64,000 nucleotides of DNA from Escherichia coli (GTDB lineage: Bacteria; Pseudomonadota; Gammaproteobacteria; Enterobacterales; Enterobacteriaceae), in assembly GCF_029227855.1 (NCBI RefSeq), contig NZ_CP074357.1. The stretch is one strand, 5' to 3'. How positions within the stretch are numbered: position 1 is the first letter of the stretch; each line of letters opens with the position of its first letter. The position numbers are program-made. This document shows, piece after piece, positions 60,501 through 64,000 of this stretch.

Positions 60501-63500
60501 AGAAATATTTGTCACAACGCAACAAACACGTTCCTGAAGGACGAACTACGTACAACAGGTTTCTGTCATTTTCTAATATGCTATGTTTCAAAATCGTTAT
60601 ATCTATCTCATTATCATGCAGCAAATAGCATGACGATGGTTCATTGACGATGCGCGATTTTATAACAGCAGCAAATTTATTAAAAACTTCGTTAATTTGA
60701 AAATTCATTAAAATGCTCTCCGATGTAAAACGACGAGCATCACCATAACGGTAATACTCCCGTTATGGGTTTTAATAGTTTATGGAATAACCATGTCATA
60801 CAACCGACCATAGCCAGTAGTACCGCACATTTATTTAACTGAGCAAGCATCTCAGCCGTGAAAAGACCTTAAAGGCAGGTAATTATCACGAAGGAAAGCG
60901 GTTATCTTATCAATACAATTTTAAAATATAATATTGATAAGATAACCCCCCCCGCAAAAAGCGGGGGAGTTATCGTTGTTACAGCTGATTAAGACATTCA
61001 GGAGCCCAGTGAATCGGGAATCCATCCTGCCCTGTTAACTGGAGAACATCGTTCCAGTCGATACCCTTTTTCCCATCAGGAATATCTTGTGCTGGTTCGA
61101 AGACTTCAATTGTCAGCTTTGATGCGGGATATCGTTTAGCCAAAAACTCAACCATGCGGCTTTGAAGTCGCTGAGCAGCTTCAATACCGGCACGAGTGCC
61201 TTGTGAGTTAGCAATATCCTTATCCGCCCAGATATAAAAGTTTATAGATTTTACATCCGGCGGAGGCAGTAAAAAATCAGGAACAGTAACGTTTTCAAGG
61301 CACCATGCGGAGCTGGCTGCCCAGCATGGTGTTGAAGTCGCTTCTACAACAGAAAGCGCGTTCTCGATCCCTTCAGCCACTCCCAGTGTCCAGGTCGAAC
61401 TACCTGAATCATAGTGAGGGTCAAACAACTGAATTGAGCCACCTGTCATATCGGCAGGAGGCTTCATCATCAGCTTTGGATTTTCTACAGGTGCCTTATC
61501 ACCATTTTTGTCTACGTATGTTCTATGAATAGTCAGAGGCCGACCTCGGGTGTCACGATAGATCGCAATCATTCCCGGATAGATAATCGATTTCTGCTTA
61601 TCTTTATCCCAATAGTAGATCCGGTTATTAAAGCCTAAATCCTTTGGTAAGTGACTCAGTAAGCGGGAGATCCCACGATTACGGAGGTACAAAGCAACAG
61701 GAGTATTAGGCTTGATTTCACCGGTATAGTGATACATCACATCAAGTTTTCGCATTCGCTTTGCCACTTCCTCTCGGTCAAGAGTTTCTGTGGCACGAAC
61801 TGCTGATTTATAGCGTCGTTCATTTTCAATGTCGGCGTCAGTTAACGGAGCATGCAGATCCATCCCGAAAAAATCTGAGAGAATCTTTTTGCAAGTCTGC
61901 GTTTTACTTAATTCATAATATTTCGCCAGAACATCAATTCCGTCGCAAAACTCATTTACCGGAAAGTCATTATGGATCGCACATCCGGTATAAAGGTCTT
62001 TTTGTCGGAAACGAAACTTCGATTTCCCTGCGCCAGTAAACGGGCAAGGAACCTGGCTCGGGGCTTTTGCACAAGCGTCTTTGAAAGCAGGTATTCTTTC
62101 GAATATATACTTCCAGCCAGACACTTCAGCAATTCGAGCATGAACGAGTTTAATAAAGTGTTCAGATACTTCCTGTGGATTACGACGAAGAGCCGGGGAT
62201 GCATAAGTCATGATGATCTCTCTTATCTGGCATTGTGAGTTTCTCAATGCCTTCTGCGGTGCAGAAGACAGGGAGAAACCCACAACGCAGAATTTAAGAA
62301 AGAGGGCCCGGGGGCCCTCAACATTTATGCTTCAGTCGTGAAGCCATTATTCTCAAGACGCTGTATGTAGTTATCTACAAGTAACGCAGCCTGCTGGCTA
62401 TTACCCTCCGCTATAGTGACTTCGCGGAAGATTCTTTCCTGAGGGCTATCATTGCTTATAACTTCACCAACACGTCCGAAAATACGGACTTTATGCATCG
62501 CACCGACTTTTTCATGTTCTACACGGTAAGTTTTTATCTGAGTCATATTTTGCTCCTTATTCCTTCATGGAGCAAAAAGACCCACCGGGGCCTTTTGCCC
62601 CGATTGGGTAGAGTTTATTAAGAAAGTATTTGATGAACTAGCTTACTGACTTCAATAGACAATAAAGAAGTATCATCAACTGTTACGAAAGTGTCCGTTT
62701 CAAAACCAATTATTTCATCAGTCTTAATACCAACACCAACGATTTCTATTCCATTACATTTAGCCTTTTCCATAACTTCGCCGATAGTAAATTCCGATTT
62801 ATTCGGATAACCATCAGTTATAAGAAAAATTATTTTCCTATCGAATTGGCTGTCAAGTAACAGATCAACAGCTGCCATTAAAGCCGATCCCGTAGGGGTA
62901 TAATAACCCTTACATCCAAGAGTGAATTTCGATAGAGATTCCTCAACGCTTTGATCAAACGTTTTGATAATCTCAAATTCACTTTCCTTGAAGGGAAAGA
63001 CTATATTGGAGACATGCATTTTTGACAAACTTTCAGCGGCCATCGATAAAGCAAGATCTGACTTAATGGCATGAATATATCTTTCATCATTAGCCATTGA
63101 CGCTGAAATATCACGAACTAATACGAGGCCAACATGCCCTCTATTTTTAGATTCGCTTTGAGCTCTGAAGACATCACGAACTCCCATTGGTGACAGAATT
63201 AATCGATTTCCATCGAAGGTAATTCCACGCTCATGAGTTTTGTTTCGGCCACGCATTTTAACCTGCTGTAAAACAGACAAGTCGCTACCGATTGAATGAC
63301 TCAGAGACAAAGCCTCATTGTAAACATTCAAATCGATAAGGAGATCAGGGATATCCCATTCAGAAGCACCGAATTCGGCTTTCACGTCATCGGATACTTT
63401 TGATGCAATACCTTCAATCTCTTTAGCCAAAGCATCGTGATAATCTTCGCTATCCTCATCACTGCCAAGAAAGGCATCCAACAAATCTGCCAGTATCTCC

Positions 63501-64000
63501 CATTGAGCCGATGAAAAGTTACTTTCATCTTCAACGTTAGTCGAACTGGCTTCATCTGATTCACTCTCGGAAGGGTTAATCGCATCAGTATCGTCTTCAA
63601 TAATGTTATCACCTGTGGGATTGCCACCGGTGGGTTCATTATTTCCCTCGTTATCTTCAGCAAGTTCTGAAGGCTCAGAACATCCCTCTTGAGCAAGATC
63701 AGAGTTATCGGAAGTATCTGCCTGACCTTCACTATCGTCCTCAGAATCATCCTCACGACTATCAGTCGACTCAAGCGATTTATCTTCTGATTCGGTATCG
63801 GTCTCGGTCTCGGTCTCGGATTCATCATATGCCTCCTGCTCCTCCTGCTCTGTCTGCTGCTGTTGTTCCCTTGCCTCATCCCGCAGTCTCTCTAAAAGAG
63901 CCAGGGTCTTACGAGCAAGGGATTCACAGCCCTGAGTATTTTCACAACCAAGAGCATCATGAAAAATTTCCTCAACATCAGAAATTACTGGAGAAAGTAT

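Follow-up and report, generated by a model that had tools for sequence, protein, structure and literature searches.

A CobT-like vWA protein encoded with DUF3150 and an AAA_5 ATPase in the backbone of IncHI2 plasmids and other mobile elements

AAA+ motors that work with a vWA-MIDAS adaptor have been described in several settings. In cobaltochelatase (CobSTN), the CobT subunit consists of an M48C-peptidase-like N-domain, a disordered linker, a 'shaft' and a vWA domain with MIDAS; the shaft (Q373-R413) inserts into the CobS ring, and in the proposed model the CobT N-domain lies on the small subdomain of CobS while CobN is gripped between the two CobT domains (cryo-EM preprint, bioRxiv 10.64898/2026.07.21.739949). 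The same two-gene logic of motor and vWA adaptor is found in NorQ-NorD, CbbQ-CbbO and RavA-ViaA, which have defined clients (NorB, Rubisco and respiratory complexes), and Rea1/Midasin (MDN1) holds an AAA_5 ring, a D/E-rich linker and a C-terminal MIDAS domain in a single polypeptide and has a ligand with a ubiquitin-like (UBL) domain. Here we describe a gene for a CobT-like vWA protein at the edge of a 64,000-nucleotide stretch of Escherichia coli DNA (contig NZ_CP074357.1, assembly GCF_029227855.1; the whole stretch is called the window), together with the module of genes to which it belongs. The sequence itself is not new. Thousands of records already label the genes VWA, DUF3150 and AAA, their homologues in the element SXT have long carried the labels 'CobS' and 'CobT?', and the module is a variant of the AAA+ motor with a vWA-MIDAS adaptor. 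What is added here is the full-length homology to CobT, an invariant HExxH motif that sets the family apart from the solved CobT, the C-terminal tip of DUF3150, and a collation of published deletion phenotypes.

The open reading frame (ORF) listed at the window edge codes for 288 amino acids (62618..63484, minus strand), as a preliminary description of the window had reported, and its start is an internal TTG. The same frame stays open to the edge, and translation of 62618-64000 on the minus strand gave 460 sense codons and a stop codon, with no internal stop. The description was right that the frame runs off the window; with a minus-strand gene, the missing part is the 5' end and hence the N-terminus. 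The highly acidic stretch that it quoted was found in the translation (...DESETETETDTESEDKSLESTDSREDDSEDDSEGQ...), and the C-terminal vWA domain was recovered by Pfam PF00092 (E 1.7e-7, above the gathering score). In NZ_CP037959.1, the Salmonella plasmid pR18.0877_278k (typed IncHI2A, MOBH, MPF_F), the gene extends 630 nt further to an ATG and encodes 670 amino acids (WP_000762699.1, 'VWA domain-containing protein'); the window translation is identical to the C-terminal 460 residues of that coding sequence. The entire window is colinear with this record at 99.99% identity, the ter (tellurite-resistance) cluster included, except for one IS21 copy that is present in NZ_CP037959.1 (locus L004, 24867-26996) and missing from the window (site ~24033). 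Window positions 48900-64000 correspond to positions 1-15101 of a locus taken from NZ_CP037959.1 (L001), with one mismatch at 57438. More than 1000 plasmids from Salmonella, Escherichia and Enterobacter, almost all conjugative, match positions 60900-64000 at 100% identity, and the window is IncHI2 plasmid backbone.

A single-sequence search of the PDB with the vWA protein returned only two uninformative vWA chains, and reaching CobT took a family profile. The profile matched the CobT of the solved cobaltochelatase (PDB 9uka_G) with an E-value of 2.1e-35 in three colinear stretches that cover the N-domain, the shaft region and the vWA domain (profile 7-290 to CobT 24-302, 378-504 to 332-461, and 537-620 to 521-616). 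The second stretch spans CobT Q373-R413, which corresponds to query residues ~457-499. The N-domain profile alone matched the CobT_N crystal structure 21vu_H at E 0.007. The CobT-like architecture suggested in the preliminary description was thus borne out, and we regard it as nearly certain that the gene is a homologue of CobT over its full length, in both identity and architecture. 'CobT-like' is used here for homology and architecture, not for function.

Exhaustive profile searching recovered 8195 cluster representatives at a threshold of E<=1e-3, a number that falls to 703 at E<=1e-30; among the best 150 listed, full-length matches were mostly of ~530-740 amino acids. A word-indexed search returned mainly IncHI-type relatives. 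Because the family is of this size and the end of the window is identical in more than 1000 plasmids, the observation is more than chance. Conservation was scored in an alignment of 75 diverse members with ~20% identity to the query. P51, H70, E71, H74, D133, G469, D507, S509, S511, M512, T578, D606 and G607 were invariant, so that the MIDAS residues (D507-x-S509-x-S511, T578 and D606) are kept without exception in these distant homologues, and G66, N129 and E137 were near-invariant. The Pfam CobT model (N-domain) was matched by 53 of the 75 members and CobT_C by 58. The query itself falls below both models, though relatives reach them, and the IncC orthologue passes the CobT gathering score; in PHROGs the vWA protein gave a weak match to phage 'CobT'.

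The AlphaFold (AF2) model of the plasmid protein (predicted local distance difference test score, pLDDT, 85.3) has a layout that agrees with the CobT plan. Its N-domain comprises a helix at 8-23, a three-stranded sheet at 29-51, a helix at 58-77 that bears the HExxH, a helix at 111-143 that bears N129, D132, D133 and E137, and further helices to 270. Disorder follows at 271-372, then a helical pre-vWA region (helices 374-389, 397-410 and 434-456, with high pLDDT) and the vWA fold from ~500. Fold searches were dominated by the vWA domain; the best structural match was the MIDAS domain of Rea1/MDN1, and NorD was among the best. No other part of the protein varies as much in length among homologues as the linker, and its composition is hypervariable too. 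The net charge is -44 over the 131 residues from 250 to 380 of the full protein, among which are 29 E, 19 D and 19 S; D+E content is 38-53% in the densest 40-residue segments and about 0.3 elsewhere in the tract, and pLDDT is below 50 over most of residues 278-363. A hexanucleotide repeat of 4.7 copies (63792-63819) lies inside the linker and encodes ETETETDTE, and some relatives have long Q/D repeats in place of the linker sequence.

The N-domain departs from the solved CobT at one site. The family has G-x-x-x-H-E-x-G-H-x-R-x-T-D where the solved CobT has GLGDS--MALRQARH, and no HExxH occurs anywhere in the N-domain of the latter. All mobile-element members checked keep the motif (IncHI2, R27, the Klebsiella MOBH plasmid, IncC, pVPH1, the N-terminal fragment of Rts1 and Vibrio phage ICP2). 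The layout is of the zincin type: a small sheet comes first, one helix bears the HExxH, and another carries a conserved Glu ~65 residues downstream, which together make up the gluzincin arrangement. We regard an active metal site in the putative zincin N-domain as likely, and the adaptor may cleave its target or hold a metal. Pfam scans of the isolated N-domains at E<=5 returned CobT only, plus one sub-threshold match to MPTase-PolyVal (E 0.003) in one relative.

A bound metal could also mean that the module is a metal-insertion chaperone of the NorQD, CoxDE and CobST kind, in which the HExxH-held metal would be delivered to a metalloprotein of the plasmid or the host, with DUF3150 or a primase-like zinc protein as possible recipient. 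HExxH with a downstream Glu binds metal with or without hydrolysis, CobSTN and NorQD insert metals, a similar role has been proposed for CoxDE, and NorD is among the best fold matches mentioned above. We nevertheless find metal delivery quite improbable, given that no metalloenzyme is consistently linked to the module, that the toprim neighbour is missing from several loci, and that the best structural match, the Rea1/MDN1 MIDAS domain, belongs to a protein remodeller, not a metal inserter.

It had been suggested that an AAA+ partner may lie just past position 64000. When the sequence was extended rightwards in the identical plasmid NZ_CP037959.1, a MoxR/CobS-like AAA+ gene was indeed found, and neither an early stop nor a partnerless gene was seen; the AAA_5 ATPase gene is not adjacent, however, as DUF3150 intervenes. 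Upstream of the vWA gene, on the same strand, this plasmid has genes for a DUF3150 protein of 375 amino acids and for a 352-aa 'AAA family ATPase' (~66204-67262 in window-equivalent coordinates), with a 55-aa ORF between the two. The ATPase matched Pfam AAA_5 (E 5e-28) and carries a Walker A (GESGSGKT) and a Walker B motif (LILLDE). Its sequence matches in the PDB were midasin AAA modules (E 7e-21), NorQ (2e-9), CobS (2e-8, residues 43-300) and CbbQ, and it matched the phage 'CobS' family phrog_249 at E 2.5e-30. The module order is AAA_5 ATPase of the CobS/NorQ/midasin type, small ORF, DUF3150, CobT-like vWA protein, and an AAA+ ATPase of the CobS/NorQ/CbbQ/midasin clade was co-located with a vWA-MIDAS protein in 10 loci.

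With CobSTN (9uka) the plasmid module shares a common domain order, full-length profile homology and a partner that is a clade-6 AAA_5 ATPase related to CobS. It differs in the invariant HExxH, in an obligatory DUF3150, in its DNA-metabolism context on plasmids, integrative and conjugative elements (ICEs) and phages, and in that no CobN was seen in the examined loci. These comparisons bear on whether the genes encode a genuine cobaltochelatase CobS/CobT pair, an auxiliary metabolic set that would work with a host CobN to raise cobalamin synthesis. Besides the full-length CobT homology and the CobS-like matches, phage relatives have been annotated and discussed in this way, and the SXT genes carry the labels given above. 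The scores are far below the NCBIfam cut-offs, however: the ATPase reached 34.4 bits against 558 for the CobS equivalog TIGR01650, the putative cobaltochelatase model TIGR02442 gave 33.5 against 779, and the CobT equivalog models gave no match. Neither cobN nor any other cob gene occurs in the ten plasmid, ICE and phage loci examined, where the neighbours are DNA recombination and replication genes, and the HExxH and DUF3150 have no part in CobSTN. The aerobic CobN route is not known from the main hosts (E. coli, Salmonella and Klebsiella); E. coli does not build a corrin ring, and Salmonella relies on CbiK. We give the chelatase explanation hardly any credence, and the module is very unlikely to make vitamin B12 or to be a cobaltochelatase.

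The other described systems differ as well. NorQ and CbbQ resemble the module by sequence and the NorD vWA domain by fold, and NorQ-NorD, CbbQ-CbbO and RavA-ViaA are without an HExxH domain and DUF3150. In Rea1/MDN1 six AAA modules are fused, whereas here the motor and the linker-MIDAS protein are separate genes, there is one AAA module (presumed to form a homohexamer) and the N-domain is peptidase-like; no UBL-domain ligand is known for the plasmid module.

The DUF3150 gene (Table 1) accompanies the vWA gene closely. By tblastn the vWA protein was present in 2035 plasmids and DUF3150 in 1978, with a nearly identical taxonomic split, and DUF3150 is an obligatory third partner of the module. 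The protein has a folded domain of ~300 amino acids and a disordered tail with an acidic-aromatic tip. The C-terminal residue is Phe or Trp in 69 of 74 diverse DUF3150 proteins, in which an acidic run typically leads into ...D-D-D-x-[FY]-F or ...D-D-W-x-W; the IncHI2 protein ends in ...FDIELKGW. The tip resembles the C-terminal tip of SSB (DDDIPF). PHROGs held no match to DUF3150, and nothing relevant was found in the literature on this family.

An acidic stretch with two aromatic residues also ends Bet, Exo and the protein encoded after the ATPase in IncC (L009 2783-7916) and pVPH1 (L003 3132-8134). The endings in IncC and pVPH1, respectively, are ...EGSYY and ...GNYF for Bet, ...ETFYW and ...SAYF for Exo, and ...EQEDHFF and ...EDSYF for the post-ATPase protein. 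This is an observation and not a demonstrated interaction; it hints at one docking site common to several operon products. The annotated IncC SSB (L009 3752-4282) runs nine residues beyond the canonical ...DDDIPF tip (...DDDIPFMRLHHLAGG), and such an extension would bury a tip that normally must be C-terminal.

The small ORF of the IncHI plasmids (55 amino acids in IncHI2, L001 17006-17173; 89 in R27, L008 16402-16671) aligns to the C-terminal 'KKGY..G' end of longer proteins of 175-183 amino acids, which occupy the same position in two distant loci (L005 4961-5488 and L006 4435-4986). One of these longer proteins had a sub-threshold WGR-domain match (E 0.004). Judged by this alignment, the IncHI small ORF seems to be what is left of a fourth component of the module.

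The module recurs in other elements, with the gene orders listed in Table 1. SXT/R391 (s067-s088-s068-s069-s070) and the IncC, IncT and IncHI1 orthologues share the module, its order and the MOBH relaxase family, and nothing essential differs. In IncC (~790 plasmids of this type carry the module) and pAQU-type plasmids an ssb-bet-exo cassette interrupts the module, and in IncHI the small ORF has shrunk to 55-89 amino acids. In Rts1 (L010 19030-22192) an IS2 copy splits the CobT-like gene into an N-terminal fragment, which keeps the motif as HEAAH, and a vWA fragment. The 'CobT' of phage ICP2 (L011 3969-6842) retains HExxH (HECYH) and MIDAS beside a CobS-like ATPase; DUF3150 is not present at the ICP2 locus. 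The usual view that phage cobST is an auxiliary gene pair for cobalamin may have to be revisited.

Downstream of the vWA gene, the TOPRIM protein named in the preliminary description was identified as DUF7146 (E 2e-19) plus Toprim_3 (E 2e-12), and it matched the phage DNA primase family phrog_510 (E 1e-27). The 73-aa ORF between the two genes had no family match.

Table 1. Features of the vWA gene and its neighbours (window positions unless a locus is named; L001 is the locus from NZ_CP037959.1), and gene orders of the module in other elements
Feature	Position	Strand	Remarks
CobT-like vWA gene, 3' 1383 nt (aa 211-670 + stop)	62618..64000	minus	first 210 codons beyond edge, L001 15102-15731
End of CobT_N-like (peptidase-like) domain, aa 211-254	63869..64000	minus	HExxH (H70, E71, H74) and D133/E137 outside window
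Disordered D/E/S/T-rich linker, aa 255-372	63515..63868	minus	composition, low pLDDT, hypervariability
Conserved helical pre-vWA segment, aa 373-456 (SNFS..W..L..LL..FL..DE.S.DYH...)	63263..63514	minus	conserved in family alignment; high-pLDDT helices
CobT 'shaft' homologue, aa 457-499	63134..63262	minus	invariant G469, near-invariant F488; aligns to CobT ~372-425
vWA/MIDAS domain, aa 500-670	62621..63133	minus	DxSxS at 63098-63112; MIDAS completed by T578, D606
Terminator-like GC hairpin + T-run directly 3' of vWA stop codon	62574..62604	minus	hairpin 62604-62584
DUF3150 gene	L001 15809-16936	same as vWA gene	beyond window edge; Pfam E 2e-23
Conserved 73-aa ORF between vWA and toprim genes	62325..62546	minus	syntenic in R27 and Klebsiella MOBH plasmid
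Toprim (primase-like) protein with DUF7146 + Toprim_3, annotated length 410 aa	60979..62211	minus	recurrent downstream neighbour of module
Terminator-like hairpins + T-runs	62319-62302, 60969-60947	minus	L001 16986-16956 likewise
R27 (IncHI1)			AAA, 89-aa ORF, DUF3150, vWA, 73-aa ORF, toprim
Klebsiella MOBH/IncFIB plasmid			traN ... helicase ... AAA, DUF3150, vWA, small ORF, toprim ... Tus ... integrase, Hha
pVPH1 (pAQU type)			AAA, hypothetical, bet, exo, DUF3150, vWA
IncC			AAA, hypothetical, ssb, bet, exo, DUF3150, vWA
Rts1 (IncT)			ssb, recT, exo, hypothetical, MoxR ATPase, DUF3150, vWA split by IS2
Distant locus L005			UvrD ... AAA, 175-aa ORF, DUF3150, vWA, toprim
Distant locus L006			AAA, 183-aa ORF, DUF3150, vWA
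Distant locus L007			SSB, RecT, YqaJ, AAA, 268-aa ORF, DUF3150-like, vWA
SXT			s089, ssb, bet, orfZ, exo, s067 (CobS-like), s088, s068, s069, s070 (cobT?), radC, s092, s072 (primase?), s073
Vibrio phage ICP2			CobT-like, CobS-like, primase and helicase ~1.5 kb on

Several further features of the backbone were recorded. GC-rich hairpins with T-runs occur in nearly every spacer between co-directional genes on the minus strand of window 60700-64000 and at L001 16986-16956, and 10 terminator-like sites were found where shuffled sequences gave an expectation of 2.4. IS26 copies lie at ~2000-2820, 13005-13825 and 15006-15825. Two adjacent hypothetical proteins of ~315 amino acids on the minus strand (55102-56064 and 56230-57168) are paralogues, with 27% identity over 309 residues (E 4e-37). 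A tandem paralogue array downstream of toprim was considered and rejected, these two being the only detectably related genes; for the three similar-sized ORFs beside them (57235-60108), BLASTP detected no similarity.

Taken as a whole, we think it rather probable that the module is an ATP-driven remodelling machine of motor and adaptor; our confidence in any specific biological role for it is far lower, and proposals of that kind are best treated as doubtful. CobS-CobT-CobN, NorQ-NorD-NorB, CbbQ-CbbO-Rubisco and Rea1/midasin offer the analogy: the ATPase would form a hexameric motor, and the vWA protein would dock on it through its N-domain and thread the shaft segment into the pore. The acidic linker would serve as a flexible tether, while an acidic residue of the target would be gripped by the MIDAS site and the target then remodelled or pulled by ATP hydrolysis. 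More speculatively, the zincin site could cleave a client or hold a metal. DUF3150 would most likely be a substrate adaptor or effector, and it might present the client, or be the client, through its C-terminal tip.

The process served might be the handling of single-stranded DNA during transfer or establishment. A role in processing or establishing transferred DNA is suggested because the module sits among ssb-bet-exo, radC and primase genes in IncC, pAQU-type and IncT plasmids and SXT, and because the SXT array is transfer-activated: it belongs to the s089 operon, whose promoter is the strongest SetCD-bound site in SXT. In the most detailed version, which we regard as a long shot, MOBH conjugative elements and some phages would encode a 'split-midasin protease' made of a CobS-like ring and a CobT-like adaptor with an active zincin, in which the MIDAS or a partner pocket reads acidic-aromatic tips (of DUF3150 and, in IncC/pAQU, also of Bet, Exo and a fourth protein), so as to organise or clear nucleoprotein on incoming single-stranded DNA; CobST would then descend from such a mobile-element machine as a domesticated, protease-dead offshoot.

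Several results weigh against the remodelling machine or against parts of it. Of the 19 deletions of 5-7 kb that were tried in R27, Del16 alone made the plasmid less stable; Del19 (175,051-180,461), inside which we mapped the vWA, DUF3150 and ATPase genes (R27 175,113-179,761), was obtained and did not reduce plasmid stability. In SXT, deletion of s067, s068 or s070 lowered transfer by <=10-fold, and the minimal element does not include these genes. When orf227-234 was deleted in Rts1, relative conjugation was 0.21, a result that says little about the module because the vWA gene is already split by IS2 there. By these deletion phenotypes the module is accessory under laboratory conditions, and any role of it would be accessory or conditional. 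The link to DNA processing is drawn from gene neighbourhood, the DUF3150 fold gave generic helical-bundle matches only, and the N-domain matched no peptidase in the PDB by sequence, CobT_N being its only match. What suggests a zincin is motif conservation, secondary-structure topology and the likeness of CobT_N to M48C reported in the preprint. The intact catalytic motifs kept across very distant elements argue for a conditional benefit.

Del18 of R27, which takes in toprim, the 73-aa ORF and five hypothetical genes, was not obtainable despite repeated attempts. The region (R27 168,601-175,050) corresponds to window 55102-62546 and may hold an essential function or one that is toxic when unbalanced. 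We considered SXT s063, whose deletion costs 100-fold in transfer, as the ATPase gene and rejected it, since the revised annotation makes s063 a divergent lipoprotein-like gene and assigns the ATPase to s067. An IncHI1 proteomics paper does not mention the module proteins, and a literature search on IncHI2 and von Willebrand proteins gave nothing useful.

The small transfer phenotypes in permissive laboratory matings would also fit a function specific to certain recipients, as in a conflict system: the module might provide anti-phage or anti-plasmid defence, or anti-defence that destroys a host factor of the recipient, with the vWA protein sensing or capturing and the AAA+ ATPase and zincin executing. 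MoxR-vWA pairs occur in conflict systems according to comparative-genomics proposals, the module is found only on mobile elements and phages, and its acidic linker is hypervariable. A PADLOC scan of seven module and neighbour proteins, however, returned no defence match (the ATPase had weak P-loop matches at E>=2e-4, and the vWA protein and DUF3150 had none). The module has a fixed place in the backbone, with genes for transfer and recombination alongside, and does not lie in a variable hotspot, and the catalytic and MIDAS residues are invariant and not diversifying. A conflict function thus seems unlikely to us, and the motor-adaptor machine remains the preferred explanation.

Multidrug resistance, including mcr-1, NDM and tet(X4), is carried in large part by IncHI2, IncHI1 and IncC plasmids and by SXT elements, and a module of three to four genes is fixed in the backbones of all of them and, in SXT, co-expressed with transfer genes. 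Where plasmid genes, and probably also phage genes, are annotated as 'CobS/CobT', cobalamin metabolism should not be read into the label. The protease-like HExxH site, which is absent from the real chelatase, and the conserved, putative docking tip of DUF3150 are concrete targets for mutants and binding assays. Should the module help plasmids to become established in new hosts, it would act as a determinant of host range for those that carry resistance.

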